A stretch of 64,000 nucleotides of DNA from an uncultured Bacteroidales bacterium. Lineage in GTDB: Bacteria > Bacteroidota > Bacteroidia > Bacteroidales > UBA932. The position numbers and the translations under genes were made by a program. The notes under the pieces were generated by a model. The model was not told where the DNA came from and did no database searches. It saw only the letters and a program-made list of their open reading frames with translations. Below, one piece after another: positions 24,099 through 53,685 of this stretch. The DNA lies in NCBI GenBank assembly GCA_944325435.1, contig CALVAC010000014.1:10603-74602 (forward strand), given 5' to 3'. Positions within the stretch are counted from its first letter, which is position 1; each line of letters begins with the position of its first letter.

Positions 24099-25880
24099 AT
24101 GGCACGTGAAATCAAATTTTCTCTAGTCTACAGGGACATGTGGCAGTCTTCGGGAAAATATGTACCGACAGTCAGCCAGCTCAAGGAGGTTGCTCCTGCA
24201 ATCATCGATATGGGATGCTTCGACAGGGTCGAGACCAACGGAGGAGCGTTCGAGCAGGTAAATCTTCTTTTCGGGGAGAATCCCAACAAGGCTGTCCGCG
24301 AATGGACCGCACCTTTCAACAAGGCCGGCATCCAGACCCACATGCTCGAAAGGGGACTCAATGCATTGAGGATGAATCCCGTCCCTGCTGATGTGAGGGA
24401 ACTTATGTATAAGGTAAAATGCAAGCAGGGCACCAACATATCAAGGTCTTTCTGCGGTCTTAATGACCACAGGAACCTGCGACTTTCTGTGGAATATGCC
24501 AAGAAGGGAGGCATGATCTCGCAGGTCGCCCTCTCCATCACCAACTCGCCTGTCCATACCATCGACTACTATATGGGTATCGTGGACAAGGTCGTCGAAT
24601 ACGGCTGCGATGAGATCTGTCTCAAGGATATGGCCGGAATAGGCCGTCCTACATTCCTCGGACAGCTGACATCCCGCATAAAGAAGAAATATCCCCACAT
24701 CATTGTCCAGTACCACGGACATTGCGGTCCTGGATTTTCGCCTGCTTCCATGCTGGAAGTGGCAAGGGCAGGTGCAGACTATCTGGATGTAGCCGTAGAG
24801 CCGCTCAGCTGGGGCAAGGTACATCCCGATGTTATCACTATCCGCGAGATGATGAAGGCAGATGGATTCAAGGTGAAGGATCTGAACATGAACGCATATA
24901 TGGAAGTGCGCCGTCTGACCCAGAAATTCATCGATGAATTCCTCGGATACTGGATCGACCCTAACAACTCCCATATGAGCTCTCTGCTCGTGGGCTGCGG
25001 ACTGCCTGGCGGAATGATGGGGTCAATGATGGCTGACCTCAAAGGGTTCCACGGGGCCATAAACGCCTCTCTCCGTGCCCAGGGCAAGAATGAGCTTACT
25101 CTTGACGAACTGATGGTAATGCTGTTCCAGGAAGTGGAATATGTATGGCCTCGTCTCGGTTATCCTCCACTCGTGACACCTTTCAGCCAGTATGTGAAGA
25201 ACACTGCCCTGATGAACCTTATGAACATCCTCAAGGGGCAGCCTCGCTGGTCCACTATCGATAAGGATACTTGGAACATGATTCTCGGGAAGATGGGAAA
25301 ACTTCCTGGAGAGCTTGCGCCTGAGATTGTGGAACTTGCAAAGAGCAAGGGTCTTGAGTTCTACACCGGCAACCCTCAGGATGCATTCCCGAACGAGCTT
25401 GACAAGTTCAAGGCAATGATGAAGGAAGAAGGATGGGACGAGGGCGAAGACCAGGAGGAGCTCTTCGAATTCGCAATGCACGAGAGGCAGTACCGTGACT
25501 ACAGGAGTGGCATAGCCAAGGAGCGTTTCCAGAAGGATCTCGCCGCTGCCAAGGAAAAGGCAGGTGCCCCTATAGTAATCGTGCGTCCTGTGGTCGAGAT
25601 GCCTAAGTACGATGTGGAGAAGATTGCCGAGAAATATCCTCACGCTAAGCCTGTCCAGGCTCCTGTAAAGGGTCAGCTTATCTGGCAGGTGGATGTGGAT
25701 GACGCTTCTACCGCTCCTGTCGTAGGCACCGAGGTCAAGGCTGGTCAGGCTATGAGCTATGTCCAGACCTATTACGGTATGGAAGAGGTTGTCCCTGCCG
25801 TTGACGGACGTATTGTAGCAGTCTGCTGCAGGCAGGGTGACAATGTAGCCAAAGGAGAGATTGTAGCCTTTGTAGAATAG
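24099..25880 (+). CDS. OadA/pyruvate carboxylase B/transcarboxylase 5S-like carboxyltransferase with a C-terminal biotinyl-like domain lacking MKM
   Basis: RDMWQS, CLKDMAG, HGHCGPG, PGGMMGS, GYPPLVTPFSQ. The C-terminal fold pattern (VQAPVKG...VDGRIVAV...GDNV.KGE) has QTYYGM where EAMKM is expected. Confidence 0.85.
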   Translation: MAREIKFSLVYRDMWQSSGKYVPTVSQLKEVAPAIIDMGCFDRVETNGGAFEQVNLLFGENPNKAVREWTAPFNKAGIQTHMLERGLNALRMNPVPADVRELMYKVKCKQGTNISRSFCGLNDHRNLRLSVEYAKKGGMISQVALSITNSPVHTIDYYMGIVDKVVEYGCDEICLKDMAGIGRPTFLGQLTSRIKKKYPHIIVQYHGHCGPGFSPASMLEVARAGADYLDVAVEPLSWGKVHPDVITIREMMKADGFKVKDLNMNAYMEVRRLTQKFIDEFLGYWIDPNNSHMSSLLVGCGLPGGMMGSMMADLKGFHGAINASLRAQGKNELTLDELMVMLFQEVEYVWPRLGYPPLVTPFSQYVKNTALMNLMNILKGQPRWSTIDKDTWNMILGKMGKLPGELAPEIVELAKSKGLEFYTGNPQDAFPNELDKFKAMMKEEGWDEGEDQEELFEFAMHERQYRDYRSGIAKERFQKDLAAAKEKAGAPIVIVRPVVEMPKYDVEKIAEKYPHAKPVQAPVKGQLIWQVDVDDASTAPVVGTEVKAGQAMSYVQTYYGMEEVVPAVDGRIVAVCCRQGDNVAKGEIVAFVE

Positions 25881-25909
25881 AGCCTAACAGGTGATAACCT
25901 GGCATTGGC

Positions 25910-25953
25910 ACCGGCATTCGTGCGGCTTGTCCCGCCGGATGCCGGTTTTCTTT
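25910..25953 (+). terminator. Rho-independent terminator after the carboxyltransferase gene
   Basis: ACCGGCAT...ATGCCGGT stem followed by TTTCTTTG. Confidence 0.65.
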
Positions 25954-25954
25954 G

Positions 25955-26794
25955 TCATTCCGTACTGTTTACCCTCAAGATACTGTTCCTGTACCGGGTC
26001 GGATAAAGGCCTGTATGTTTCTGCACATACCGGCTGAAATAGGAGACAGACGAGAAGTTCATACGGTTTGCGATTTCTGTCAATGTAAGTTCCTTTTGAC
26101 AGAGCAGTCGTGCTATCTCCTGAAGGGTGAAACGGTCTATCCAATAGGAAGCCGGTTTCCCGCTTGCCTTTTTGCATATTTCGGTCAGATAGTGCGGTGT
26201 GATGCAGAGTTTAGATGCATAATAGGGCAGGTCCCTGTGCAGGATGTATTCTTTCCTGTAAAGCAGTCCGATAAATTGGCTTGTCAGGATGAAGAGACGC
26301 TCAGACGGCTCCTCCAATGTATGTCCCCAGGCATGGATGTCATACAGATCAAGTATATGTGCCGCAAGTAGATGACTTATCATTTCTTCCTTGAAAAGAT
26401 GTTTGTTGTCATCAAGCCTTTCACGGATATGCAACAAGTCTGTCCGGCATTTTGCAAAATTCTTCCGGGACAGTTTCATCACGGGATTCTGCAGGAGAGA
26501 CAGATGTCCGATGATGCCGTAATTGCTGCGCAATGCCATTGTTGTCACGAAGGATTCGGGGAAACACATGAAAATGCCCTTGAAATCTTTTGACCGGACA
26601 AAGCCGGAGGCCATAGATGCATTGGTCAGAATGACATAGTCCCCTTCTACGATATTGTAATGAATCTCCCTGAAGGTGAAACTGATGGAACCTTCCAGAC
26701 AAAGGATATGCATCACTACATCCCATAGATTCATAATATTGTAATCATCAATTGAATTGATGAAGAATATCTTGTCTCTTGCTTCCTCCTCCAT
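25955..26794 (-). CDS. AraC family transcriptional regulator
   Basis: C-terminal YYASKLCITPHYLTEICK...LTEIANRMNFSSVSYFSRYVQKHTG double HTH. Confidence 0.93.
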   Translation of the reverse strand: MEEEARDKIFFINSIDDYNIMNLWDVVMHILCLEGSISFTFREIHYNIVEGDYVILTNASMASGFVRSKDFKGIFMCFPESFVTTMALRSNYGIIGHLSLLQNPVMKLSRKNFAKCRTDLLHIRERLDDNKHLFKEEMISHLLAAHILDLYDIHAWGHTLEEPSERLFILTSQFIGLLYRKEYILHRDLPYYASKLCITPHYLTEICKKASGKPASYWIDRFTLQEIARLLCQKELTLTEIANRMNFSSVSYFSRYVQKHTGLYPTRYRNSILRVNSTE

Positions 26795-26822
26795 ATAGAC
26801 GGTATGCGGTTAAATCATTTTG

Positions 26823-26903
26823 CAAAAGTAGCAATAACCACGAAAAGTGAATAAGAAACTACGGATTTTGTATCGGGATTCCAATGTCGTTGCGGTAATT
26901 TTG
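26823..26903. promoter_or_regulatory. Divergent -7 boxes for araC and the aldo/keto reductase
   Basis: TACTTTTG on - (26823-26830) and TAATTTTG on + (26896-26903). Confidence 0.6.
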
Positions 26904-26921
26904 CAACAAAATTCACAAGCG

Positions 26922-27770
26922 ATGAAAGAAGTAAGATTGAACAACGGCGTAATGATGCCATCCATCGGATTCGGAGTCTTCCAGATTCCGGCAGAAAATA
27001 CAGAGGATGTTGTAAGTCAGGCTCTTGAGACAGGCTATCGGATGATTGACACGGCAGCGGCCTATTTCAATGAGGAGCAGGTTGGTAATGCCATCCGGCA
27101 TAGCGGCCTGAAACGGGAGGATATATTCATCACGACAAAACTATGGGTGCAGGATTATGAATATGAGGATGCGCTCCGTGCTTTCGACAGGTCTGTGAAG
27201 CTTCTTGGACTTGATTATATCGACCTTTATCTGTTGCATAAGCCTTATGGCAACTATTATGCGGCATGGAGAGCCTGTGAGCGGCTTTATAAGGAGGGAC
27301 GGATACGTGCCATTGGCGTGACCAGTTTTTCCAGCGAGCGGCTCCAGGATCTGTTTCTGCACAATGAAATCAAGCCGGCGGTAAACCAGCTGGAGACTCA
27401 TCCGTTTTTCCAGCAGCAGGCAGCAGGCGGGTTCTTGCAGCGTGAGGGGATACAGCACGAGGCCTGGGCGCCGTTTGCAGAAGGACAGAATGACATCTGG
27501 AACAATCCGGTGCTGAAAACCATCGCAAAAAGGCATGGACGGACGGTAGGGCAGGTTGTTCTCCGCTGGCTGAACCAGCGCAATGTAGTGGTTATCCCGA
27601 AGACCGTACACAAAGAGCGTATGGCGGAAAACCTGGGCATTCTCGACTTTACGCTGACGGATAAGGAAATGCTGGCTATTGCCGGACTGGACACAGGACA
27701 CAGTCCTATTTATGATGATACGGATCTTTCGACCACGAGGAACATAGGAACGCTCCGGATCCACGACTGA
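26922..27770 (+). CDS. Aldo/keto reductase (2,5-DKG reductase-like)
   Basis: IGFGVFQ, GYRMIDTAAAYFNE, TTKLW, DLYLLH, IGVTSF, IPKT. Confidence 0.95.
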   Translation: MKEVRLNNGVMMPSIGFGVFQIPAENTEDVVSQALETGYRMIDTAAAYFNEEQVGNAIRHSGLKREDIFITTKLWVQDYEYEDALRAFDRSVKLLGLDYIDLYLLHKPYGNYYAAWRACERLYKEGRIRAIGVTSFSSERLQDLFLHNEIKPAVNQLETHPFFQQQAAGGFLQREGIQHEAWAPFAEGQNDIWNNPVLKTIAKRHGRTVGQVVLRWLNQRNVVVIPKTVHKERMAENLGILDFTLTDKEMLAIAGLDTGHSPIYDDTDLSTTRNIGTLRIHD

Positions 27771-27907
27771 AATGTCCGTAACTTGCTCCATACTGTTTCG
27801 CGTGTATTGCAATCCGGAGTAATACAGTTGCGTATAATTGACTATATTTGCAGGCCGGAACGGTTCCGTGGCAAGGTGAGCGTCATTGCGGACGGAACCG
27901 GGAATAC

Positions 27908-28534
27908 ATGAATGGTATTGCCATGGATTTTGTTACGGTCATAGACTATATAGGTACTTTCGCTTTCGCGATAAGCGGGATAAGGCTTGCTGCGGCAAAG
28001 AATTTCGACATATTCGGTGCATACGTCGTGGGGTTCGTGACTGCCATCGGAGGAGGGACCCTGAGGGATCTTCTGCTAGATGTGACACCGTTCTGGATGG
28101 AGCAGCCTTCTTATGTGATAATCACTGCGCTGGCCCTTGTATTCGTGATCATATTCAAGAAGTATGTCGTACGTCTGGACAACACTTTCTTCATATTTGA
28201 TGCCGTGGGGATAGCATTGTTCACGGTTGTGGGTGTCGAGAGGAGCATCGCGGCAGGTTTTCCCGTGTGGGTGAACATAATAATGGGGGCAATCACGGGG
28301 GCTGCCGGGGGAATGTTCAGGGATATTTTCATAAACGAGGTGCCGCTGATTTTCAGAAAAGAGATATATGCAATGGCCTGTGCAATGGGAGGAGTTTTCT
28401 ATTATCTGTGCCAGTGGGCAGGCTGCGGGCATCTCCTGACGCAGATTATCGCTGCGGTCTCGGTCTTCCTGATCCGTGTGCTGTCTGTGCATTTCGGCAT
28501 CAGTCTCCCGTCGTTGAAACCGATAGACAGATAG
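27908..28534 (+). CDS. Trimeric intracellular cation channel (TRIC/UPF0126) family protein
   Basis: GTFAFAISG, AIGGGTLRD, DAVGIALF, GAAGGMFRD. The start could instead be 27923. Confidence 0.9.
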   Translation: MNGIAMDFVTVIDYIGTFAFAISGIRLAAAKNFDIFGAYVVGFVTAIGGGTLRDLLLDVTPFWMEQPSYVIITALALVFVIIFKKYVVRLDNTFFIFDAVGIALFTVVGVERSIAAGFPVWVNIIMGAITGAAGGMFRDIFINEVPLIFRKEIYAMACAMGGVFYYLCQWAGCGHLLTQIIAAVSVFLIRVLSVHFGISLPSLKPIDR

Positions 28535-28598
28535 GTAAGTGCCACGCTGTCGTGCACTGGATGCCATCCGCCGTCCGATATATGCGGAAAACGGGGAA

Positions 28599-29297
28599 CT
28601 ATCCGGATGTCAGTTTCAGGAACTGGCGGGGAATGCCTGTGTCGAATGTCAGTGTCTCGCCGGTGTACGGATGTCTGAATGAAAGGATTCTGGCGTGGAG
28701 TGCGAGACGGCGGATAGGGTTTGTCCGGGCTCCGTATTTCCTGTCTCCGGCTACGGGATGGCCGATGTCTGCGGCATGTACCCGTATCTGGTTCTTCCGA
28801 CCGGTCTCCAGTTCGAATTCCACCAGGGCATAGTCTTCTGCAGGGCGGATGACCCTGTAGTGTGTGACCGAATATTTCCCTCCGTTGTCCGTCATACTGG
28901 ATGACACTTTCATCGACTTGGGATTGTCCCTGAGGTAGCTCGCGATGGTGCCTTCCTGTCTGGCCGGTGTGCCTTCAAGGACAGCTACATATTTACGCTC
29001 CAGGACGATTTCATTCCAATCTTCCTGGAGCGCATACTTTGTTTCAGGGTCTTTTGCGAAGACTATGACTCCTGATGTGTCCCTGTCGAGCCGGTGTACA
29101 ATGAAAATCCGCCTCCTTTCTTCCTGTTTCCGGTCTCTGTATCCTCTGCCGGAACGTACATAATCCGTAAGGATTGAATAGGCTGTAATCTCACCTTCCC
29201 GTCCTGTGGACATCGTCAGCAGGCCGCCTGGCTTGTCTGCGACAATGATGCTGCCGTCTTCATACAGCATCTCCAGTCCGTTGCGGCCTTTTCTCAT
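28599..29297 (-). CDS. RluA family pseudouridine synthase
   Basis: DKPGGL, HRLDRDTSG (catalytic Asp), LETGRKNQIRVH, GDRKYG. Confidence 0.93.
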   Translation of the reverse strand: MRKGRNGLEMLYEDGSIIVADKPGGLLTMSTGREGEITAYSILTDYVRSGRGYRDRKQEERRRIFIVHRLDRDTSGVIVFAKDPETKYALQEDWNEIVLERKYVAVLEGTPARQEGTIASYLRDNPKSMKVSSSMTDNGGKYSVTHYRVIRPAEDYALVEFELETGRKNQIRVHAADIGHPVAGDRKYGARTNPIRRLALHARILSFRHPYTGETLTFDTGIPRQFLKLTSG

Positions 29298-29300
29298 ATA

Positions 29301-29591
29301 TCAGATTGCTTTTTTCTCCTTTGCTCTCACCAGCTTGTCCTTGAGGATGTCCACGCAGTCCACCAGCGCGTCTTCGAATCTTCTGGCGTTCCTTTCGATC
29401 ACGATGTCGTTGCCCGGAATGCGGACATGAACCTTGACATTCTTGTTCTCGTGGTCTGCAAGGAGGGACATCGTCACTTCGACATCAGTGATTCCGTCAT
29501 AGAACTTTGGTAATTTAGATAATTTCTTCTCCACGAAATCCAACAGTTTCTGATCAGCGTTGAACTTGATCGATTGTACTCTAATCTCCAT
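29301..29591 (-). CDS. hpf: Ribosome hibernation promoting factor (RaiA/HPF)
   Basis: MEIRVQSIKFNADQKLLDFVEKKLSKLPKFYDGI...FEDALVDCVD.LK.KL; 96 aa. Confidence 0.92.
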   Translation of the reverse strand: MEIRVQSIKFNADQKLLDFVEKKLSKLPKFYDGITDVEVTMSLLADHENKNVKVHVRIPGNDIVIERNARRFEDALVDCVDILKDKLVRAKEKKAI

Positions 29592-30585
29592 TTTTACCTC
29601 CGTTTTTTCTTGCCCTCGGATGGGCTGATTCATAAACTTTCTTCAGCCGGCTGATGGAATTGTGGGTGTACACCTGGGTTGCCGCAAGCGAGGAGTGTCC
29701 GAGCATTTCCTTGATAGCATTCAGGTCGGCTCCTTCGTCCAGCAGCTCGGTCGCGAGCGTGTGCCTGAGAACATGCGGAGACTTTTTTCCTGTCATGCTT
29801 TCCACTCCCGAGAACTCCCGCTTTATCAGCCTGTCGACATATTCGGGGTAGAGCACTCTGCCGCTGAATGTGACGAAAAGCGGAGATCCTGGCGTGCGGT
29901 CCTCACTCACCATCAGTCCAACTGACTGTAAATATAATGCAATTTCTTTTAATAATGAAGGGACGAGTGGAATTTCTCTCATTTTGTCTCCCTTGCCTCT
30001 TACGCACATCGTATGTCTGCTGAAATCGATGTCCCGGACATGCAGGCCGATGAGTTCGGCGCGGCGGATGCCGGTTGTGTAGAGGGTCATAATGACGGCT
30101 CTGGACAGACGCTTTTCATACAGCCTCCTGGTCTGTTTCCTGTCGGGGGAGACATACAGGGATTCTGCGGAGGCATAGTATTCAGTCTCGGCAAGATACC
30201 TGTCGATGGATTCCTTGCGGTAGAATTCCGGAAGCCGTTTTTCGACCTTGGGTCGTGCCACGGCTTTTGCCGGATTGGATTTTATATAGCCGTTCTTGAG
30301 CAGGTACCGGCAGAATCCGCTCAGGGCGGATATGTGCAGATTCACTGTCCTGGGACTCATCCTACGGGTCTCGAGCAGAAAGACTTCATAACTCCTGACA
30401 ATGGATGGAGTGAGGCTTTCCAGGAAACCGTCCCCGTTTCCGGCGGAGATGCGTTTCCTTTCCTCATCTTCCGGATACAGGAACGACAGGAAGATTTCCA
30501 GGGATTCCCGGTAGATGTCACATGTTCTGGAAGAGTATCTCCTGACAGAGGAGATGTATTCTATGTAGCCATCTATGTATTCCAT
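29581..30585 (-). CDS. xerC: Tyrosine recombinase XerC
   Basis: GIRRAE, RGKGDK, HVLRH, LGH, TQVYTH (full catalytic set); adjacent to hpf as in other Bacteroidota. Confidence 0.88.
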   Translation of the reverse strand: MEYIDGYIEYISSVRRYSSRTCDIYRESLEIFLSFLYPEDEERKRISAGNGDGFLESLTPSIVRSYEVFLLETRRMSPRTVNLHISALSGFCRYLLKNGYIKSNPAKAVARPKVEKRLPEFYRKESIDRYLAETEYYASAESLYVSPDRKQTRRLYEKRLSRAVIMTLYTTGIRRAELIGLHVRDIDFSRHTMCVRGKGDKMREIPLVPSLLKEIALYLQSVGLMVSEDRTPGSPLFVTFSGRVLYPEYVDRLIKREFSGVESMTGKKSPHVLRHTLATELLDEGADLNAIKEMLGHSSLAATQVYTHNSISRLKKVYESAHPRARKNGGKNGD

Positions 30586-30589
30586 ACCT

Positions 30590-32155: not shown

Positions 32156-32178
32156 ATAGCAATGTGATTAGGGATTTC

Positions 32179-34746: not shown

Positions 34747-34768
34747 TTGTCGAAAATTTCCTGTGAAT

Positions 34769-35200
34769 TTATTTCAATATGTCCTGATCGTCCTGTTTCA
34801 GCATTTCCTCATATATCGGTGCGCGGTCAAGGAATGCATATCCGTTCCCGTCGGCCCTTTTGCCGCAGATATGTGTGGATTTCCCGTTGGTTATGATTAT
34901 GTATCTGACATTCAAGACCATATTGTACCGGACAGCTTGCCATATCACCTCGCTGTCAAGGGACACATCCGGCCTTTTGCATTCCACTATGGCCAGAGGT
35001 CTCGCCTGCCTGTCGTAGACAAGAATGTCGGTCCTGTATGTCTTCTTCCCGAGATGGAGCGGGCTTTCACTCATCATCAGATGCAGAGGCACATGCATCT
35101 CTGTATTCAGGTATCTTATAAACCACTGCCGCACACTTTCTTCAGGAGTGAGTGCAACATCTTTCTTCCTCAACGGATCCCATATCGTGTTACCGCACAT
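34769..35200 (-). CDS. Stand-alone HsdR N-terminal (PD-(D/E)xK) domain protein
   Basis: DPLRKK.V.LTPEE.VRQ, RTDILVY, IVECK, QAVRYN, TNG. Confidence 0.88.
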   Translation of the reverse strand: MCGNTIWDPLRKKDVALTPEESVRQWFIRYLNTEMHVPLHLMMSESPLHLGKKTYRTDILVYDRQARPLAIVECKRPDVSLDSEVIWQAVRYNMVLNVRYIIITNGKSTHICGKRADGNGYAFLDRAPIYEEMLKQDDQDILK

Positions 35201-35205
35201 AATTA

Positions 35206-35270
35206 CAAAGGTAGCGAAAAAATCCCCTTAAAAAAATTTTTTTGAACGGCTTTTTAAATTACTATCTTTG
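35206..35270. promoter_or_regulatory. Divergent -7 boxes for the HsdR_N gene and holA
   Basis: TACCTTTG on - (35206-35213) and TATCTTTG on + (35263-35270), with TTTG at 35241-35244 as a possible -33 element. Confidence 0.7.
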
Positions 35271-35276
35271 CAGGCC

Positions 35277-36317: not shown

Positions 36318-36363
36318 CGGCAGGGGATGGATTTGTATGGTTAACTTAGATATTTGTAATGGT

Positions 36364-40483: not shown

Positions 40484-40634
40484 CACGGATTCGATAAAAT
40501 GCCCTTCCGGAGATTAGGGGTCGTGAGCGGAAAATAAAATCATCCGGAGGATGTTTTATAGCGGGTAGCAGGATGGGTGGAAGAAAGGGCGGGGCCGGAT
40601 TCCCGTATGGGGTGGATCAAATCGATATGACAGA

Positions 40635-42026: not shown

Positions 42027-42068
42027 TCTGTCCGGTGAGCCGGGCTGGTTTATATGGTATTTGCCGGG

Positions 42069-42950: not shown

Positions 42951-42995
42951 TTGCATAATGTACAGTTTATTGAGGTGTGTCTCACCCGTATCCTG

Positions 42996-43061
42996 CAAAA
43001 TTACTTAAAATTTACTTATCCGCAATCATTGATGACAAGTGTGTAAAATTTCCTATATTTG
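42996..43061. promoter_or_regulatory. Divergent -7 boxes for yicC and glnS
   Basis: TAATTTTG on - (42996-43003) and TATATTTG on + (43054-43061). Confidence 0.65.
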
Positions 43062-43147
43062 CAGTTTGGCCGGAGAAAGCGAGTCATGCTCTTTTCCCGC
43101 TATGCCAATCCACTGTTTGCCAGATGAAAAGTTTGTCATAAAAGAAT

Positions 43148-44821: not shown

Positions 44822-44912
44822 CAGGATGTCGGGAACGCTCGGAACACCGTTTATGGCAACGGTTATCCCGGGAATTGTCCCGGTGACGTATATCCGGAAA
44901 TTTATGGCATAT

Positions 44913-46397: not shown

Positions 46398-47479
46398 CGG
46401 CATTTCCTTAAGGCTTTGCGGATGACGGGGATGACCTTGGAAGCATAGCGTGAGGCACCCAGGTCAGTGAAATGGATGGCATCAACCGTCGCTTCTCCAT
46501 CGTCACCTATGAGGTTTTCGGAGGTTATGTAGTAGAGTTTCCGGAAACCTTGTCTTCTGAGCCTGTCGTATAGGGCTTTCTGTTCCCTGTTTTTCCTGCC
46601 GACCTCTTCCGCTATCCTTTTGTTGAACAGGGTGTGGGGGAACTGGGGGTCTTCAATGAAGATAACCGGCACATCGGGATGCGCATCCCGGAGAATCCTG
46701 AAAAATGTCTCGCCGCGTTCAGCTATCTGCTTTGCAGATGCGTTGGGCACATAGTCGAGGACAAACACGCCCGGGTCTTCTACTTGCGCCATCAGCTCCG
46801 CTATCTCATAGTCGAGCAGAGCATTGCCGCTGAACCCGAGGTTGATGACGACCCTGTCGAGCTTCCTGGCAATCATGTTTGTGAAAGCCATGCCGGGACG
46901 GCTGACGCAGCCTCCCTGCAGGATGCTTGTCCCGTACATGACCACAGGCTTCTGTGCAGAAGGGCTTGCGACGGCTGGCTGATCTATGTATGCATCTCTG
47001 TCCACCCCGATCTCTATGTCTTCAATCCCGTCATAAAGGGACAGGTATAGCATATATTCCCTGTCTGTCTGTTCCATCCCGGAGACCAGTACAGCTTCCG
47101 TGCTTCTGTCCTGTGGCTTCCCTGCTCCAGCAAAACGCCATTCCCCGTCATGAAGTATGTACAGGTCGATTCCCCGTGTCCCGACAGGTGACATGTGGTT
47201 CATATATACTTTGGAAAGCGATGTCCATTTTGCGGAAACGGATGTGGAGTTGGACCTGAACCTTATGAAAAGTCCGGCTGAATTGCGTCCGAGGTTCCAT
47301 ACAGGGCCCCGGACCTTGCCCTGCAGATAACCAGGGAGCCGTCCATACCTGTCGAATGTTTCATCGACGGCTTTGCCGTAGACCGGGAATGCGGCAGCAT
47401 CCACATACTTCAGGTTTTCTTGTGAGTATGCCGCCACAGCAATCAGCATCAAGGCGGCGACAATGCATATCCTGTCCAT
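46394..47479 (-). CDS. SGNH/GDSL hydrolase with N-terminal GxDLY domain
   Basis: Signal peptide; GIDLY, YGTSILQG, NLGFSGN, DAIHF. Confidence 0.88.
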   Translation of the reverse strand: MDRICIVAALMLIAVAAYSQENLKYVDAAAFPVYGKAVDETFDRYGRLPGYLQGKVRGPVWNLGRNSAGLFIRFRSNSTSVSAKWTSLSKVYMNHMSPVGTRGIDLYILHDGEWRFAGAGKPQDRSTEAVLVSGMEQTDREYMLYLSLYDGIEDIEIGVDRDAYIDQPAVASPSAQKPVVMYGTSILQGGCVSRPGMAFTNMIARKLDRVVINLGFSGNALLDYEIAELMAQVEDPGVFVLDYVPNASAKQIAERGETFFRILRDAHPDVPVIFIEDPQFPHTLFNKRIAEEVGRKNREQKALYDRLRRQGFRKLYYITSENLIGDDGEATVDAIHFTDLGASRYASKVIPVIRKALRKCR

Positions 47480-47532
47480 ATACTGTCTGGTTTAAATCTG
47501 TCTGTTGTCCTGGTTGCCTGTCCTGATGTTTG

Positions 47533-50500
47533 TCAGTCGAGCAGATGTGACAGGAACTGTCTGGCAGTCTGCCCGTCCATTCCCCGTCTTCGGGCGTATG
47601 CCTCATACTGTTCTCTGCTGATTCTCCGGATGTCGGGGTAGCAGGCCTGCGGATGTGCGAATATGAATCCGCAGATTGATGCATCCGGAATCATGGCATA
47701 GCTTTCTGTCAGATGTATGCCGAGCCGTTCTCCGTCAGGAAGAAGAGCCAGTATGTCCTTTTTGAGAGTGTGGTCGGGACAGCTGGCGTATCCCGCAGCA
47801 GGCTTGATGATCTTTATTGTCCCGCTGCCGTCTTGAATGCCGTGACCTGCGGCAAGACATTCTTCCAGATGATGGTCGAGCCACATCGAGGCTGCCTCTG
47901 CAAGAGTCAGCCTTACCGCCCTGCGGACAAGTTGCGGATAGTCCGTACTGCAAGCGGATTGTGTGCCGTCCTGCAGGTCAGTGCATTCCGTGACCGAAAT
48001 CGCAAACATTCCGAAATTGCCCTTCTTCCCTGAACTATCAGATGGAACGAAATCGCAGAGGGAGAGATGTCCGTTGTTTCTGCCCTCCTGCCGGAACATA
48101 GGAAGGAAATGACCATCGAACAGGATACCCCCATCTTTGGAAGATGCATCGAAAAATCGTGCTGCCAGCATTATCCGGCATCCGTCAGTGCCGGCGGCTG
48201 TGCCGGTGTCTTCATTTGACAGTGCACTCGCTGCAGAGTCCTGTCCGAAGGTTTCTGCGGCCAGGATACTGTCGATGACTGCCTTGCCATCGGCTTTCAG
48301 TCTGACAACCTCGTCGCTGTCGGGGAGCGGCCCGTTATATCTTATCCCGAATACGGTAAGGAACATACGCCAGTCAAAATACTGCACGACATCTCTGACC
48401 GGGATTTCCCTGGCGGGGATGTCAGTGAAGCCTGCAGAACTGCAGCCGATATATGATTTCTCCGGAAATGCAGGTATGGCGGCCTTCCCGATGTCTCCGG
48501 CAGTGTCAGTACCGGTGTCAGTCTGCCCGGTAGCCTGTGCCGTTGCTGTCTTGCCCTTGCTGTAATATAGTTCTCTCAATCTGTCCTGTGCTGAGTGCTC
48601 TTCCTCCTCGAATGTCTGCCGGTCCATCATGCAGCGTTTTGCCATTACGGCGCTGGCGGATGCATCTGCCCCGTAGAACACGTGCCGGTACAGAGGAGCG
48701 AGCTTTACTGCTGTATGCAGAGCGGATGTTGTTGCACCACCGATGAAAAGCGGGGTGTCGAGCCCTCTGCGCGTCATTTCTCTGCAGAGTTCCTCCATCT
48801 GGAAGAGGGATGGTGTGATAAGTCCGCTTACCGCTATTATGTCCGCCTGTTCTCTTTCCGCTGTCCCGAGGATGGTATCCCTGTCTACCATGACCCCGAG
48901 GTCAATGACATTGAATCCGTTGCATGTCAGTACGATGCCTGTGATGTTCTTCCCTATGTCGTGGACATCTCCCTTGACGGTGGCCAGGATTACTTTTGGC
49001 CTGGCTGTCCTCTGTTCTTCAGGATAGCTGTGGCCGTGATTGTCTGACTCCACATCTCCATTGCCGGTCTTTCCTTTCCCGGGCATATACGGCTCGAGTA
49101 TCGTTACGGCATCCCTCATCACCTTGGCTGATTTCACCACCTGCGGCAGGAACATCCTGCCGTTGCCGAACAGCTCTCCGACTTTCTTCATCCCGTCCAT
49201 CAGCGGGCCTTCTATGATGGAAACAGCGCTTCCTCCGTACTTGTCCAGAGCCTCCTTAAGGTCCTTTTCCAGTTCTGATGCCTTCCCTTTGACCAAGGCG
49301 TTGCCCAATCTCTCTTCGACGGTGCTCGGGACGCTCTCTCCATTCCGGCTGTCTGTACCGGAGCCGCTGTCGGCAGAACTGCTTTCACAGTTGCCGCCAT
49401 TACCACGCGTTCCGGCTGATTCTTTCTCCTGAAGCACTTTCTGGGCCTTTGCTATGAGCCTTTCTGTGGCTCCGGGATCACGGTCGAATATCACATCTTC
49501 CACGCACTTGAGCATTTCAGGTTCGATCTGGTCATAGACCTGGAGCATCCCCGGGTTGACAATCGCCATATCAAGCCCTGCCTGTATCGCATAATAAAGG
49601 AATACTGAATGCATGGCCTCGCGGACCTCGTTGTTGCCCCTGAATGCAAAAGACAGGTTGGAAATGCCCCCGGAAGTCTTTGCCCCCGGAAGATTCCGGT
49701 GTATCCACCTGACAGCCTCTATGAAATCGATGCCATATCTTGCGTGTTCCTCTATCCCTGTGCCGATTGAAAGTACATTCGCATCGAATATTATTTCTTG
49801 AGGCGGTATGCCTGCTTCAGTGAGCAGCCTGTATGCTCTGGAGCATATCTCGACTTTCCTTGCGAATGTTGTAGCCTGACCCTGCTCATCGAACGCCATT
49901 ACGACCATTGCCGCTCCCAGACTGCGTATTTCAAGTGCCTTGTCAATGAATGTCTCTTCCCCCTCCTTGAGACTGATGGAATTGACAATGCATTTTCCCT
50001 GGGCGTTCTTGAGGCCGGCAACAATGGTCTCCCAGTGAGATGAGTCTATCATCAGGGCAGCCTTTGCGGCTGAAGGGTCATTGGAAATGTAACGGCAGAA
50101 CTTCTCCATTTCGCAGGTGCTGTCCAGCATGGCATCATCCATATTGATATCGATGACGGATGCCCCGTTTTCAATCTGGTCAGCCGCTGTCTGCAGGGCG
50201 GCTGTGTAGTCCCCGGACGCAATGAGCCTGGCGAATTTCCTCGAGCCTGCCACATTGGCTCTTTCCCCGATGTTTGTAAAGTTGCTTGTGGAAAGGTCTA
50301 TATGGACTGCTTCAAGTCCGCTGACAGCCAGTCCCTTGTTGACTGGAATGGATTGACTGCAAGATCTTCTTGCCGGGATTCCTTTCACTGCGGCGGCAAT
50401 CTCCCTGATATGTTCCGGAGTGGTTCCGCAGCAGCCCCCTACAATGTCCAGAAGACCTTCTGCTGCCATTTCTCTGACTTCTTCCGCCATTTCGGACGGA

Positions 50501-51369
50501 GTCTGGTCATAGCCTCCCATTTCATTCGGCAGACCGGCATTGGGATAACATATTACCGGACATTCTGCCAGGAGTGAGACTTCCTTGACAAGAGGGGCGA
50601 GTCCGGCTGCTCCGAGGGAGCAGTTCAGCCCGAATGCAGCAAGCGGATAATGTGATACGGAAGTGTAGAATGCCTCGATTGTCTGCCCTGTGAGGGTTCT
50701 TCCGCTCCTGTCTGCGACTGACACGGATATTATGACCGGAATCCTGTCATTGGAATATTTCCCGTTTCCCGGAGAGCCAGGCAAGCAGATCCTTTTTTCC
50801 CCCAGCCGAGAAATGGCGTACAGTGCGGCTTTGACATTCAGCGCATCGAAACAAGTCTCGATCTGGATAATGTCCGTCCCTCCTTCCAGCAATGCTTCTG
50901 CCTGTTCGCCGTATGCAGCCGCCATATCATCAAAACCGAATTGTCTGTGTGCCGGGTCAGAGATGTCGGATGCAAGGGAAAGCGATTTGGAGGTCGGTCC
51001 GATGCTGCCTGCCACAAGGATATGTCTTCCTGTCTCGGATTTTGCCCTGTCTGCCGCCCTTCTTGCAATCCTCGCCCCTTCCAATGCCATCTGCCTTGCC
51101 AGAGAGCTGCAGCCGTACTCCTGCTGGGAAATGCGGTTTGCGCTGAAAGTGTTGGTCTCGATAATGTCGGCTCCGGCCGCTATGTACTGCCTGTGGATAT
51201 CCTCTATTATGTCAGGACGGGTCAGGTTGAGGCATTCGTTGTTCCCGGCAAGTTCGCAGGGTATATCAGAGAAAGGTCTGCCGTGGAAATCTTCCTCCGA
51301 CAGACCGTATTTCTGGATCATAGTCCCCATCGCCCCGTCCAGAATCAATATGTTCTTTCCGGAAAACAT
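47533..51369 (-). CDS. metH: B12-dependent methionine synthase
   Basis: LDGAMGT, LNCSLG and GGCCG (Zn), GERANVAGS, DINMDD, DVHDIGKN (B12 His), reactivation domain PAAGYASCPDH. Confidence 0.97.
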   Translation of the reverse strand: MFSGKNILILDGAMGTMIQKYGLSEEDFHGRPFSDIPCELAGNNECLNLTRPDIIEDIHRQYIAAGADIIETNTFSANRISQQEYGCSSLARQMALEGARIARRAADRAKSETGRHILVAGSIGPTSKSLSLASDISDPAHRQFGFDDMAAAYGEQAEALLEGGTDIIQIETCFDALNVKAALYAISRLGEKRICLPGSPGNGKYSNDRIPVIISVSVADRSGRTLTGQTIEAFYTSVSHYPLAAFGLNCSLGAAGLAPLVKEVSLLAECPVICYPNAGLPNEMGGYDQTPSEMAEEVREMAAEGLLDIVGGCCGTTPEHIREIAAAVKGIPARRSCSQSIPVNKGLAVSGLEAVHIDLSTSNFTNIGERANVAGSRKFARLIASGDYTAALQTAADQIENGASVIDINMDDAMLDSTCEMEKFCRYISNDPSAAKAALMIDSSHWETIVAGLKNAQGKCIVNSISLKEGEETFIDKALEIRSLGAAMVVMAFDEQGQATTFARKVEICSRAYRLLTEAGIPPQEIIFDANVLSIGTGIEEHARYGIDFIEAVRWIHRNLPGAKTSGGISNLSFAFRGNNEVREAMHSVFLYYAIQAGLDMAIVNPGMLQVYDQIEPEMLKCVEDVIFDRDPGATERLIAKAQKVLQEKESAGTRGNGGNCESSSADSGSGTDSRNGESVPSTVEERLGNALVKGKASELEKDLKEALDKYGGSAVSIIEGPLMDGMKKVGELFGNGRMFLPQVVKSAKVMRDAVTILEPYMPGKGKTGNGDVESDNHGHSYPEEQRTARPKVILATVKGDVHDIGKNITGIVLTCNGFNVIDLGVMVDRDTILGTAEREQADIIAVSGLITPSLFQMEELCREMTRRGLDTPLFIGGATTSALHTAVKLAPLYRHVFYGADASASAVMAKRCMMDRQTFEEEEHSAQDRLRELYYSKGKTATAQATGQTDTGTDTAGDIGKAAIPAFPEKSYIGCSSAGFTDIPAREIPVRDVVQYFDWRMFLTVFGIRYNGPLPDSDEVVRLKADGKAVIDSILAAETFGQDSAASALSNEDTGTAAGTDGCRIMLAARFFDASSKDGGILFDGHFLPMFRQEGRNNGHLSLCDFVPSDSSGKKGNFGMFAISVTECTDLQDGTQSACSTDYPQLVRRAVRLTLAEAASMWLDHHLEECLAAGHGIQDGSGTIKIIKPAAGYASCPDHTLKKDILALLPDGERLGIHLTESYAMIPDASICGFIFAHPQACYPDIRRISREQYEAYARRRGMDGQTARQFLSHLLD

Positions 51370-51381
51370 TGGTTTATATGG

Positions 51382-51864
51382 TTATCCGATTGTGACGATA
51401 GGAGCATCAGCAGGTACAGAATCTCCTACATTGACATGTATTGCAGTGACAGTCCCTGCGACAGGGGACTCGATGGTGTTTTCCATCTTCATGGCTTCAA
51501 GAACGGCTACCTGCTGCCCTGCCTTCACTGTGTCTCCGACTTTTACAGATATCCCGACGATATTTCCAGGGAGAGGTGCAGTTACAGCCTTTCCTGCGCC
51601 TGTTGCCGCCGGAGCAGGAGCAGCCGCCGGTGCGGCCTGGGGTGCAGGAGCAGGAGCCGGTGCCGGTGCAGCGGCAGGAGCGGTCTGGACGGGAGCCTGG
51701 GCTGTCTGCTGTACTGGAGCTGCCTGTACTGAAACAGGAGCCATACCGTTTCCGAGCTCTACCTTATATGAAGCGACCACGGTCACATCAGCGACATTCC
51801 CGTCAACTGAATTGATGGTCACATTGTATTCGTTTCCGTTGATCTTGAAATTATATTGTTTCAT
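51382..51864 (-). CDS. Biotin carboxyl carrier protein (MmdC/1.3S-like)
   Basis: MKQYNFKINGNEY, Pro/Ala linker, APLPG, LEAMKMEN biotin acceptor. Confidence 0.95.
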   Translation of the reverse strand: MKQYNFKINGNEYNVTINSVDGNVADVTVVASYKVELGNGMAPVSVQAAPVQQTAQAPVQTAPAAAPAPAPAPAPQAAPAAAPAPAATGAGKAVTAPLPGNIVGISVKVGDTVKAGQQVAVLEAMKMENTIESPVAGTVTAIHVNVGDSVPADAPIVTIG

Positions 51865-51884
51865 TTTACGATATTTTTAATGTG

Positions 51885-52103
51885 TCATTTCTTTTTGTCC
51901 GGGAGCTGGCGCAATGTTGCGTAGCGTGAATTCCATGGAGTGGACTTAGGCTTGATGGTCACGACAAAACTCTCGTTGTCGTGCACTTCATCAGCCATGC
52001 ATTTGTCCAGAGCCATTGCGATGGCAGCGCAGATTTCCCCTCCGATGGTGTCGTTGAGACGTACTGCTGTCTCGAATGCCTTTTCTGATGATATCTCGTT
52101 CAT
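51885..52103 (-). CDS. Small soluble carboxylase accessory subunit (resembles the C-terminal part of OadG/MmdD-type proteins)
   Basis: GEICAAIAMAL...VHDNESFVVTI...TPWNSRYATLRQLP; sits between the carboxyltransferase and BCCP genes; no long TM helix. Confidence 0.7.
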   Translation of the reverse strand: MNEISSEKAFETAVRLNDTIGGEICAAIAMALDKCMADEVHDNESFVVTIKPKSTPWNSRYATLRQLPDKKK

Positions 52104-52122
52104 GATATTCAGTTTTAAATGA

Positions 52123-53685
52123 CTACAGAGGCAGGTTGTCGTGCTTCTTGGCAGGGTTGACTACCTTCTTGCCAGCAAGCTGCTCCAACGCGCGGATTAC
52201 GCGGAAACGGGTGTTGCGTGGCTCGATGACATCATCGATATATCCGTATTTGGCTGCCTGGTAAGGATTGCAGAAGAGGTCGTTATACTCAGTCTTCTTT
52301 TCCTCGGCCACGCGCTTCTTCTCTTCCGGATCCTCGATAGCCTTGATTTCCTTTGAATAGAGGACCTCTACCGCCCCCTCGGCTCCCATAACGGCTATGT
52401 TTGCGGACGGCCAAGCATAGTTGATGTCACCGCGGAGCTGTTTGCAGCTCATCACGATGTGGGATCCGCCGTAGGACTTCCTGAGAGTTACTGTGACCTT
52501 AGGTACGGTGGCTTCACCGTAAGCATAGAGGAGCTTTGCTCCGTGTACTATGATTCCGCCGTATTCCTGCTGTGTTCCGCAGAGGAAACCAGGTACATCC
52601 ACAAGTGTAACGAGCGGAATGTTGAATGCGTCGCAGAAACGGACGAACCTTGCTGCCTTGCGGGATGCGTTGATGTCAAGCACTCCGGCAAGGATCTTGG
52701 GCTGGTTGGCTACGATGCCGACAGAACGGCCGTTCATATGCGCGAAACCTATGATGATATTCTTTGCGTAGTTCTTGTGAATTTCCAAGAACTTGCCATC
52801 GTCCACAATGCTGCCGATGACCCTGTACATATCGTACGGTTTGTTAGGGTTGTCCGGGATAATCTCGTTGAGGGCATCGTCTACGCGGCTGACAGGATCA
52901 TCCGTTGGGACTACAGGCGCCTCTTCCATATTGTTCTGAGGGATGAAGCTGAGGATGTCCTTGATGATCTGGAGCCCTTCCTCTTCAGTGTCTGCGGCGA
53001 AATGGGCGACTCCGCTCTTTGTAGAATGTACGCTTGCACCTCCGAGGTCTTCCTGGCTCACCACCTCGCCGGTGACAGTCTTCACCACGCCAGGACCCGT
53101 AAGGAACATATATGAGGTATTCTTCACCATTATATTGAAGTCCGTGAGGGCAGGGGAGTACACCGCACCTCCTGCGCATGGACCGAATATGCCTGAAATC
53201 TGTGGAATCACACCGGAAGACATGATGTTTCTCTGGAAAATCTCTCCGAAACCTGCAAGTGCACAGATCCCTTCCTGGATTCGAGCTCCGCCGGAGTCGT
53301 TGAGTCCGATGCAAGGGGCGCCGTTCTTCATCGCCATGTCCATCACTTTGCATATCTTCTGTGCCATTGTCTCTGAAAGGGAGCCTCCAGACACGGTGAA
53401 GTCCTGTGCAAAGATGTAGACAGACCTGCCATCGATGGTGCCGTGTCCTGTGACAACTCCGTCTCCGTCATAATGTGTCTTGTCCATTCCGAAATTGGTG
53501 CAGCGGTGCTGTACGAACATGTCGTACTCCTCGAAGCTTCCTTCATCGAGAAGCATGGCAATCCTTTCCCTCGCCGTATATTTCCCTTTCTGATGCTGGG
53601 CATCGATCCTTTTCTGACCTCCGCCCATACGGGCTTTGGCCCTGCGCTCTACAAGTTCTTTGATTTTTTCCTGCTGGATACTCAT
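52123..53685 (-). CDS. Acyl-CoA carboxyltransferase (MmdA/PccB/12S-like)
   Basis: [64 protein letters not shown]. Confidence 0.96.

Follow-up and report, generated by a model that had tools for sequence, protein, structure and literature searches.

We propose that a soluble biotin transcarboxylase, working without ATP and without a sodium pump, is built in an uncultured gut bacterium from three proteins, P0001, P0002 and P0003, probably joined by a 72-residue tail peptide. The predicted reaction, conversion of oxaloacetate and acetyl-CoA to pyruvate and malonyl-CoA, would replace that of acetyl-CoA carboxylase, and we give this reading a probability of about 0.6. The evidence is genomic throughout: observed gene content and gene absences, operon erosion, fab genes as syntenic neighbours, and catalytic motifs and a fold that are conserved. 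If the reading is correct, a lineage lacking the ATP-driven acetyl-CoA carboxylase makes malonyl-CoA without ATP from the leftovers of a sodium pump.

Source genome and comparison sets

The genome, here G000, is a metagenome-assembled genome of Ca. Cryptobacteroides (family UBA932), 2.76 Mb in size and 98.3% complete. The absences reported below rest on this 98% estimated completeness and on agreement among relatives. Positions refer to the window, the whole stretch of 64,000 nucleotides analysed. Within the order sample the genus is represented by G000, G005 and G248. Phyletic counts were made over 251 Bacteroidales genomes, and a close-relative set comprised 40 genomes carrying close homologues of the P0001-type gene, labelled P1a. 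The label P1b is used for the Bacteroidales OadA form that is followed by oadB.

The oxaloacetate/pyruvate carboxyltransferase

P0001 (24099..25880, forward strand, 593 residues) is a carboxyltransferase of the 5S/OadA/PycB type with a TIM barrel and a C-terminal pseudo-biotinyl domain. It is present as a single copy. A profile search gave matches to Pfam families PF00682 and PF02436, and the NCBIfam models for OadA, PycB and 5S match far below their equivalog cut-offs (239 bits against 756 for TIGR01108, 163 against 827 for the 5S model NF008984). The sequence matches in the PDB are OadA (2nx9, 4e-35) and 5S (1rqb, 8e-35). A Foldseek search with the AF2 model (pLDDT 84.8) returned TM scores of 0.84 to 5S (1rqh) and 0.85 to the carboxyltransferase domain of Vibrio cholerae OadA (2nx9), from the OadGAB pump, with which P0001 shares this fold.

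Arg12, Asp13, Lys176, His206 and His208 are invariant across 81 homologous sequences. At the C-terminal hairpin the sequence is QTYYGMEE in place of the expected EAMKME, with Tyr559-Gly560 standing in for Met-Lys throughout the 81 sequences. The initial annotation had P0001 lacking a biotin-acceptor lysine, and this is borne out since Gly560, invariant in the homologues, occupies that position. In the RDMWQS motif a tryptophan is found where 5S and OadA carry histidine, a feature also common to true OadA paralogues adjoining oadB, and the PGGMMGS loop seems to be without the Ser/Thr present in 5S and OadA. The invariant catalytic Asp, Lys and His-x-His, with a predicted fold like that of 5S and OadA, make the proposed chemistry plausible. 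The upstream neighbour is asnA, encoding aspartate-ammonia ligase (22877..24013, forward strand; PF03590, 341 bits), which serves as context only.

The CT-tail-BCCP locus

The remaining parts lie 26 kb away on the reverse strand, and in G000 P0001 does not adjoin fabD. P0003 (52123..53685, 520 residues) is an acyl-CoA carboxyltransferase (CT) of the MmdA/12S/PccB type and a full Carboxyl_trans protein, scoring 667 bits on PF01039 and 797 bits on TIGR01117 (mmdA); PDB matches are to the PCC beta subunit (3n6r, 726 bits) and 12S (1on3, 601 bits). It is single-copy, the sole CT of its kind in the genome. Ile410 aligns with Asp422 of Streptomyces coelicolor PccB. The PccB D422I variant accepts acetyl-CoA, and AccB, which accepts acetyl-CoA, has isoleucine at that position (PMC7835884). 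Ile410 also occurs in the orthologues of genera that retain the mutase; the residue would allow acetyl-CoA use and is no proof of it.

The biotin carboxyl carrier protein (BCCP), P0002 (51382..51864, 160 residues; PF00364, 75 bits), is a free carrier, also single-copy. Its EAMKME sequence confirms the EAMKM reported in the initial annotation, and all three open reading frames named there were recovered at the same coordinates. A search of all G000 ORFs with a custom biotinyl HMM gave one strong match, P0002 (2e-29), and no other match with an [AS]MK motif, hence no second biotin carrier.

Between CT and BCCP lies a soluble peptide of 72 residues (51885..52103), for which a Pfam search gave no match. 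It matches the C-terminus of OadG-like proteins of 301-316 residues whose genes separate CT from BCCP in family members; that of G141 scores 34.8 bits on TIGR01195 (oadG_fam) against a cut-off of 36.05. Tail-only peptides elsewhere have 66 (G102) or 34 (L044) residues, and all share the core A-A-I-A...HD-x-ES...TIK. On this sequence comparison the peptide is assigned as the remnant cytoplasmic tail of an OadG/MmdD-like membrane subunit. Directly after BCCP comes metH (47533..51369, reverse strand), identified by its Pfam domains as the B12-dependent methionine synthase. It marks the deletion boundary, occupying the place of oadB/mmdB in relatives, and is not part of the system.

Operon erosion and gene neighbourhoods

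In family members the operon order is epimerase-CT-OadG-like-BCCP-OadB. The epimerase gene is directly upstream of CT in G141, G266 and G259, and in G141 the CT is followed by the 301-residue OadG-like protein, BCCP and, directly after it, OadB. CT, tail peptide and BCCP are all that remain in G000 and G005. The most likely origin of this locus is an operon for a sodium-pumping methylmalonyl-CoA decarboxylase that lost the epimerase, the OadG-like membrane part and the beta pump subunit.

Gene neighbourhoods in relatives tie P1a, CT and BCCP to fatty-acid synthesis. At locus L044 the order is fabF, CT, tail, BCCP, fabD and P1a with gaps of at most 20 bp, in a genome where AccC, OadB and the mutase were all not found. 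P1a, an optional lipoprotein gene, fabD and the gene for pyruvate:ferredoxin oxidoreductase (PFOR) lie on one strand at nine genome loci, on seven metagenome contigs and in G141. Synteny comparison shows this arrangement downstream of P1a to have been lost in G000, where PFOR lies beside fabD on contig C2. An operon of P1a, CT, tail and BCCP is seen in G102/L115.

Genes absent and present

The initial annotation noted that neither of the two loci encodes a biotin carboxylase or an OadB/MmdB subunit, and suggested searching the genome and its relatives for both. The statement holds for the whole genome, with no match to PF02785 (biotin carboxylase) or PF03977 (OAD_beta). The same search found PF02785 in 13 of 14 control genomes, not in G005, G248 or G141, and in none of the 40 close relatives. 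With E. coli AccC as query the only match in G000 is CarB, the sole ATP-grasp match, and AccA and AccD match P0003 only.

By tblastn, methylmalonyl-CoA mutase and MeaB were not found in G000. PF01642 (mutase) is lacking in G000, G005 and G248 and in 31 of the 40 close relatives, and no epimerase scored over the cut-off in G000, G005 or five close relatives. Because mutase, MeaB and epimerase are absent, G000 has no evident source of methylmalonyl-CoA.

The type II fatty-acid set is complete (fabH, fabD, fabG, acpP, fabF and fabZ), and these genes together with lpxA establish a demand for malonyl-CoA. Both an oxaloacetate supply, PEP carboxykinase (pckA, sharing 70% identity with its E. coli counterpart), and a pyruvate sink, PFOR, are present.

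Proposed mechanism

In the putative cycle, P0001 would move a carboxyl group from oxaloacetate, supplied by PEP carboxykinase, to the biotin of the free BCCP with release of pyruvate. The MmdA-type CT would transfer it from the biotin to acetyl-CoA, giving malonyl-CoA; FabD would then charge ACP with it to feed the type II fatty-acid pathway and the synthesis of lipid A. PFOR would turn the pyruvate back into acetyl-CoA. That the parts assemble physically, that acetyl-CoA is the acceptor and that flux runs in this direction are inferences.

Phyletic pattern

Across the 251 Bacteroidales genomes those with P1a tend to lack AccC (odds ratio 6.0, p = 9e-7, without correction for phylogeny), and 15 of the 24 families with P1a lack AccC throughout. 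In 248 of the 251, AccC, OadB, a P1-family gene or some combination of them is found. AccC is present in 12 of the 40 P1a-bearing genomes of this sample, which shows that P1a can also occur alongside acetyl-CoA carboxylase. A further 59 genomes lacking AccC are also without P1a, which therefore is not the only route.

Comparison with known systems

The transcarboxylase of Propionibacterium freudenreichii subsp. shermanii (EC 2.1.3.1; 12S, 5S and 1.3S) likewise has three soluble parts: a CT of the 12S/PccB family, a TIM-barrel oxaloacetate/pyruvate carboxyltransferase and a small free biotin carrier. Like the proposed system it works without ATP or a pump. P0001 is not orthologous to the Propionibacterium 5S subunit, however, belonging to a Bacteroidales RDMWQS clade with a dead biotinyl domain, and G000 differs in having the tail peptide and genes at two loci. 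With neither mutase nor epimerase, the physiological acceptor therefore cannot be that of propionate fermentation.

The proposed reaction is that of a fused enzyme in Entamoeba and Mastigamoeba (PMC8136499). Where that source cites Clark 2007 and Barbosa-Cabrera 2012, the fused enzyme is said to supply malonyl-CoA in an anaerobe lacking conventional acetyl-CoA carboxylase. The Entamoeba/Giardia protein resembles our proposal in reaction, role and lack of a biotin carboxylase; it is a single polypeptide whereas G000 has four separate proteins. A match in composition is B5X54_RS07175-07190 of Caldicellulosiruptor bescii, encoding a methylmalonyl-CoA carboxyl transferase, a hypothetical protein, BCCP and an 'oxaloacetate decarboxylase'. 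This unit has a FapR site, is derepressed with the fab operon and was labelled a 'putative malonyl-CoA biosynthesis unit' (PMC7071700). As in G000 there are four parts, and a short hypothetical protein separates CT from BCCP. Unlike G000, the organism belongs to the Firmicutes, the genes form one operon and the link to fatty acids is by regulation, not synteny; the role is putative.

CT, tail and BCCP of G000 are orthologous, in the same order, to the alpha, delta (C-terminal part) and gamma subunits of Veillonella MmdABCDE and the G141-type operon (epimerase-mmdA-oadG-like-mmdC-mmdB). Compared with the sodium-translocating methylmalonyl-CoA decarboxylase, G000 lacks the beta subunit, epimerase and mutase, and its delta subunit lacks signal peptide, outer domain and membrane anchor. 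Decarboxylation coupled to sodium export is therefore impossible in G000. The P1b paralogues directly upstream of oadB share the RDMWQS, KDMAG and H-x-H motifs with P0001 and are 52-56% identical to it. They keep a biotinylatable EAMKTYN hairpin, whereas P0001 has glycine at the lysine position and no oadB partner.

Alternative explanations

Could the parts have another function, or none? One unlikely reading makes CT and BCCP part of an ordinary ATP-dependent acyl-CoA carboxylase, as its carboxyltransferase half; the biotin carboxylase would then be unassembled or too divergent to detect, and P0001 would be unrelated. Genes can be missed in MAG assemblies, AccC does accompany P1a elsewhere, and P0001 is unlinked to CT and BCCP in G000; against this stand the concordant lack of PF02785 in G000 and its relatives, the single ATP-grasp match and the embedding of P1a in CT-BCCP-fab operons at L044 and in G102. 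Alternatively, CT-tail-BCCP might be what is left of the sodium-pumping decarboxylase, decaying and without function, while P0001 stands alone, perhaps as an oxaloacetate decarboxylase that works without biotin, and malonyl units or fatty acids come from elsewhere. The three losses are clear, and BCCP (58% identity) and tail peptide (50%) have diverged fast between G000 and G005. Yet the CT and P1a reading frames are intact and the best conserved locally (92% and 91% in the same comparison, MetH 60%), catalytic residues are invariant, BCCP keeps its biotinylation motif, a CT orthologue occurs in 41 of 41 family genomes, and the trio is retained across the whole clade that shows the same three losses. 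FabD needs malonyl-CoA, for which the genome shows no other evident source. We consider decay improbable. We think it equally improbable that the trio is a transcarboxylase acting mainly on another acyl-CoA, such as propionyl-CoA or butyryl-CoA, carboxylated to make lipids with methyl or ethyl branches. Enzymes of the P0003 family are often promiscuous (PMC7835884, PMC8085960), and the CT is orthologous to MmdA serving methylmalonyl-CoA in mutase-bearing relatives; but there is no evident downstream user of methylmalonyl-CoA, the genome would still require malonyl-CoA, and the neighbours fabF, fabD and PFOR point to malonyl-ACP and acetyl-CoA.

The initial annotation proposed a methylmalonyl-CoA:pyruvate transcarboxylase of the Propionibacterium kind, in which methylmalonyl-CoA derived from succinate yields propionyl-CoA and oxaloacetate is regenerated. 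A soluble transcarboxylase independent of ATP and pump is indeed the most likely outcome, given the absences and the one-operon trios of G102/L115 and L044, but for G000 the assigned substrate and role are not supported. The subunit set equals that of Propionibacterium, OadB and biotin carboxylase are absent, and fumarate reductase and pckA are present. Set against these are the missing mutase, MeaB and epimerase, the last including deletion of the gene that precedes CT in family members, and a single, weak CoA-transferase match (24% identical to ScpC). Propionate formation by this route is thus close to refuted for G000. The same reading is plausible, and may apply, in other members of the Bacteroidales where mutase and epimerase are retained and OadB and AccC are missing. 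The mutase is present and OadB and AccC are absent in G014, G146 and G320, with an epimerase found in G014. The clearest case is G102, which has mutase and epimerase, lacks OadB and AccC, carries the PCC-type aspartate at the CT specificity position and has a P1a-CT-BCCP operon.

The carboxyltransferases and the carrier protein

The three open reading frames named in the initial annotation are real and lie at the positions it gave. P0001 (24099-25880, + strand, 593 amino acids), the 5S/OadA-like carboxyltransferase, consists of an HMGL-like barrel and a PYC_OADA domain, and its N-terminus, MAREIKFSLVYRDMWQS, represents the same start as in the homologues. P0003 (52123-53685, - strand) is a full-length carboxyltransferase of the MmdA/12S/PccB type and P0002 (51382-51864, - strand) a free biotin carboxyl carrier protein (BCCP) carrying EAMKME, consistent with the EAMKM noted earlier. 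The 72-residue open reading frame between P0003 and P0002 encodes a soluble tail, all that remains of the delta subunit. The gene directly after P0002 is metH (47533-51369).

P0001 scores alike on the OadA, PycB and 5S models and far under the equivalog cut-offs, with 239 against 756 for OadA (TIGR01108) and 163 against 827 for the 5S equivalog NF008984; the latter marks it as a homologue of 5S and not an orthologue. Among solved structures V. cholerae OadA (4e-35) and P. shermanii 5S (8e-35) are equally close. Superposition of the AlphaFold model (pLDDT 84.8) yields TM values of 0.84-0.85 for both 5S and the carboxyltransferase domain of OadA; with 5S itself (1rqh) Foldseek reports a TM of 0.84 and an RMSD of 3.2 Å. 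The features of a 5S-type subunit, a TIM barrel with a metal site formed by Asp, carbamylated Lys and His-x-His, are all in place, and the metal-binding and catalytic residues (R12, D13, K176, H206 and H208) are invariant in 81 homologues. In the C-terminal barrel Tyr559-Gly560 is conserved across the same 81 homologues at the Met-Lys position of biotin enzymes. Gly560 thus occupies the place of the acceptor lysine, the loss of which had been recognized in the initial annotation, and this barrel cannot be biotinylated.

P0003 aligns with the 12S subunit (PDB code 1on3) over its full length with 601 bits and covers PF01039 end to end, as a 12S-type subunit should. It scores 797 against a cut-off of 999 on the alpha-subunit model TIGR01117, and P0002 scores 73 against 200 on the gamma-subunit model NF047903.

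Genome content

The genome (G000; 2.76 Mb, 98.3% complete), like the whole evidence base, derives from an uncultured organism, assigned to Candidatus Cryptobacteroides (GTDB family UBA932) by the names of near-identical loci. The absence of a biotin carboxylase and of an OadB/MmdB subunit, initially remarked on for the two loci, extends to the entire assembly, where searches with PF02785 (biotin carboxylase) and PF03977 (OAD_beta) return nothing. The identical PF03977 search is positive in B. thetaiotaomicron and in 198 of 251 Bacteroidales genomes. The only AccC-like match in G000, a weak tblastn hit on contig C16, is CarB. AccA and AccD find P0003 alone, and weakly; with AccC also missing, a heteromeric acetyl-CoA carboxylase (AccABCD) is not encoded. 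Neither is an OadGAB decarboxylase, which combines a biotinylated OadA with OadB and OadG, given Gly560 and the lack of OadB, and the pump subunit of an MmdABCDE complex is likewise missing (PF03977, 0 matches).

P0001, P0002 and P0003 are each encoded once, and P0002 is the only protein in G000 with a biotinylatable hairpin, a free small biotinyl subunit in a genome that has no biotin carboxylase or membrane decarboxylase (PF02785, PF03977). Weaker matches to the biotinyl model were efflux adaptor-like lipoproteins and NqrA, none with an [AS]MK motif. An NqrA-like open reading frame (contig C36:5774-7147) suggests that G000 possesses a Na+-translocating NADH:quinone reductase, so that a sodium cycle would still be run in the cell although the decarboxylase pump has been lost.

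Genes for fatty-acid synthesis are present (fabH, fabD, fabG, acpP, fabF and fabZ, with lpxA), as are fumarate reductase and a pckA 70% identical to that of E. coli. Outside the window, fabD and the pyruvate:ferredoxin oxidoreductase gene (PFOR, nifJ) form a direct pair in that order on contig C2:173904-178526.

Which acyl-CoA is carboxylated?

The initial annotation assigned the three proteins to a methylmalonyl-CoA:pyruvate transcarboxylase serving propionate formation, as in Propionibacterium. That enzyme (EC 2.1.3.1) shares its chemistry with the system proposed here; it acts on (S)-methylmalonyl-CoA made by way of mutase and epimerase, enzymes that G000 and its congener G005 lack. E. coli ScpA and MeaB used as queries find nothing in G000, the mutase model PF01642 has no match in any of the three genomes of the genus within the order sample, and no epimerase (TIGR03081) exceeds the cut-off in G000, G005 or five close relatives. 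The mutase is otherwise widespread, being present in 232 of 251 Bacteroidales genomes by the Pfam model, and it is missing from 31 of the 40 genomes with close P0001 homologues. The propionate role is therefore not borne out in G000. With fab genes but no acetyl-CoA carboxylase the cell needs malonyl-CoA; with no mutase or epimerase it lacks a source of methylmalonyl-CoA, and with pckA it makes oxaloacetate. We favour, with a probability of roughly 0.6, a soluble biotin transcarboxylase that converts oxaloacetate and acetyl-CoA to pyruvate and malonyl-CoA without ATP.

In such a system oxaloacetate from PEP carboxykinase would donate its carboxyl group to biotinylated P0002 on P0001, with release of pyruvate, and P0003 would pass the group on to acetyl-CoA to give malonyl-CoA. 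The reaction, near equilibrium, would be drawn forward by FabD and the condensing enzymes while PFOR removes the pyruvate. By analogy with the delta and gamma subunits of the pumps, the tail peptide has probably remained a binding partner of the acyl-CoA carboxyltransferase, and P0001 may be anchored to the complex through its dead biotinyl domain.

In P0003 the residue at the position of PccB Asp422 is Ile410. The substitution D422I allows PccB to accept acetyl-CoA, and an AccB that uses acetyl-CoA has isoleucine at this position (PMC7835884); the proposed reaction is also one that the Propionibacterium enzyme carries out (PMC8085960). Together these make the use of acetyl-CoA chemically reasonable, but prove nothing, and Ile410 should be taken as an indirect hint at the formation of malonyl-CoA and pyruvate from oxaloacetate and acetyl-CoA. 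The residue was also considered as a means of separating malonyl-CoA from methylmalonyl-CoA carboxyltransferases. It does not discriminate, since isoleucine is present not only in G000 but in mutase-bearing genera too (36 of 38).

Gene neighbourhoods

In relatives the lysine-less type of P0001, here P1a, is tied to fatty-acid synthesis. At one locus (L044), with gaps of at most 20 bp, the order is fabF, acyl-CoA carboxyltransferase, a 34-residue tail, BCCP, fabD and P1a; both fab products score above their equivalog cut-offs, and in this genome, too, AccC, OadB, mutase and epimerase are missing. At 17 further loci, seven of them on metagenome contigs, one in the family member G141 and nine in other genomes, a single strand carries P1a, fabD and PFOR, with or without a lipoprotein gene after P1a. 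These neighbours are exactly the users of the proposed products, FabD of malonyl-CoA and PFOR of pyruvate, which it converts to acetyl-CoA. Another genome without OadB and AccC (G102) has P1a, the acyl-CoA carboxyltransferase, a 66-residue tail and BCCP in that order. The link to fabD is broken in G000 itself, where the genes are split between two loci. Its P1a gene has moved and now adjoins asnA; in many relatives it stands upstream of the fabD-PFOR pair.

Descent from a sodium pump

An orthologue of P0003 is present in all 41 genomes of the family, and the mutase is retained in 36 of the 38 other genera. The G141 locus comprises, in order, epimerase, acyl-CoA carboxyltransferase, a 301-residue OadG-like protein with signal peptide, outer domain and membrane segment, BCCP and OadB; the epimerase is directly upstream of the carboxyltransferase in two other genomes (G266, G259) also. 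In G000 and G005 the epimerase and OadB have been lost and the OadG-like gene is reduced to the 72-residue cytoplasmic tail. The six genomes without OadB that have the closest P0001 homologues (G290-G294 and G296; 90-97% identical) lack AccC and mutase as well. Between G000 and G005 the acyl-CoA carboxyltransferase is 92% identical and P0001 91%, compared to 60% for the adjoining MetH. The sequences indicate that parts specific to methylmalonyl-CoA and Na+ pumping were discarded while those for carboxyl transfer are strongly constrained. The series from full sodium pump, through a pump without mutase, to the soluble trio represents a clear case of a membrane energy-conserving complex pared down to a biosynthetic enzyme.

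The small subunit of methylmalonyl-CoA decarboxylase in UBA932, at 301-316 residues (L103 of G141, 7337-8242; L093, 524-1474), greatly exceeds classical OadG and MmdD in size. A signal peptide, an outer domain of about 190 residues, a membrane segment matching oadG_fam slightly under the cut-off, and a cytoplasmic tail can be distinguished. MetH of the window, with 1278 residues, has inserted linkers rich in Gly, Ser and Asp, and its identity to the G005 orthologue falls far below that of the adjoining carboxyltransferase.

Distribution in the order

The P0001 family comprises three types that need to be told apart; taken as a whole it is not tied to the absence of OadB, occurring in 13 of 53 OadB-negative and 74 of 198 OadB-positive genomes. 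All three types share the YRDMWQS, LKDMAG and YHxH motifs. P1b proteins, 52-56% identical, carry a genuine EAMKTYN hairpin with oadB directly after the gene and are true OadA subunits. One such OadA (52% identical, biotinyl lysine kept, oadB directly after) is encoded at L104, 1496-4569, in G248, a 1.6-Mb genome assigned to the same genus that has no P1a, mutase or AccC. P1c proteins, of about 730 residues, keep DAMKMEN. In P1a the lysine has been lost in all lineages examined, with varied replacement sequences.

Biotin carboxylase is found in none of the 40 genomes with close P1a homologues. In the even sample of 251 Bacteroidales genomes AccC is absent from 28 of 40 genomes with P1a, called partly by identity and length and sequence-checked in 11 of the 40, against 59 of 211 others (odds ratio 6.0, p = 9e-7, uncorrected for phylogeny). 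AccC is absent throughout 15 of the 24 families with P1a, present in seven and mixed in two, and 248 of the 251 genomes carry at least one of AccC, OadB and a P1-family gene.

No biotin carboxylase is found in 87 of the 251 genomes sampled, roughly one third of the order. OadB is present without any P0001-family gene in 43 of these 87, which leaves them no recognised route for acetyl-CoA carboxylation. As P1a accompanies AccC in some families and many AccC-less genomes have no P1a, other routes must exist. Reversal of the pump, reportedly described by Dimroth and Hilpert in 1984, is one candidate.

A broader proposition, which we regard as tentative and somewhat below even odds, is that many Bacteroidales do not obtain malonyl-CoA from ATP-dependent acetyl-CoA carboxylase. 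P1a would charge carboxybiotin from oxaloacetate for the MmdA-type carboxyltransferase, and the methylmalonyl-CoA decarboxylase complex would be a bifunctional hub that serves fatty-acid synthesis as well as propionate formation and Na+ pumping. Its minimal soluble form would be the one in Cryptobacteroides, with the dead P1a biotinyl domain as a docking or regulatory module resembling plant BADC proteins.

Comparison with known systems and implications

All bacteria are taken to begin fatty-acid synthesis with acetyl-CoA carboxylase, which is considered essential and is an antibiotic target. Should the malonyl-CoA reading hold, widespread gut and rumen Bacteroidales make malonyl-CoA without ATP, using oxaloacetate that PEP carboxykinase forms with a gain of ATP, and the energy balance assumed when the metabolism of these uncultured fermenters is modelled would change. 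Annotations such as 'oxaloacetate decarboxylase', 'pyruvate carboxylase subunit B' and 'methylmalonyl-CoA decarboxylase', under which such genes would be wrongly counted in the propionate pathway, would then need correction. Metabolic engineers seeking an ATP-free route to malonyl-CoA would gain a natural, compact bacterial template.

The composition of a malonyl-CoA-forming transcarboxylase, acyl-CoA and pyruvate-type carboxyltransferases with BCCP and no biotin carboxylase, in a genome with fab genes but no acetyl-CoA carboxylase, is what G000 displays. The fused transcarboxylase of Entamoeba and Mastigamoeba has the role proposed here (PMC8136499). A four-gene unit of C. bescii has the same composition; it carries a FapR site, is derepressed with the fab operon, and was described by its authors as a putative malonyl-CoA biosynthesis unit (PMC7071700). 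Among human gut genomes that were surveyed, transcarboxylase was reported from Actinobacteria only (PMC9403272), and in Prevotella mmdA, a small ORF and mmdC were taken purely as decarboxylase parts (PMC11575231). We found no published description of such a system in Bacteroidota, nor anything on one in the literature on bacteria without acetyl-CoA carboxylase, on Cryptobacteroides metabolism or on Porphyromonas. The novelty lies in the Bacteroidales setting, a 5S-like subunit without the acceptor lysine, a delta subunit reduced to its tail, and an origin that can be traced to a sodium pump. A search of a representative library of 1.8 billion proteins for fusions of P0001 to an acyl-CoA carboxyltransferase yielded mostly fragments among the best 150 matches and no informative fusion.

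P1c genes lie between an MCC-beta-like carboxyltransferase with an enoyl-CoA hydratase on one side and an acyl-CoA dehydrogenase on the other, with a gene for HMG-CoA lyase near. Such clusters occur at L116 (G224, 307-7422), L117 (G041), L118 (G102) and L119 (G076); the carboxyltransferase is 33% identical to P0003 and the hydratase is of the methylglutaconyl/carboxygeranoyl type. Judged by its gene content the cluster is a second candidate transcarboxylase without biotin carboxylase, and resembles a pathway of the leucine/isovalerate type whose carboxylation step would use oxaloacetate or pyruvate instead of ATP.
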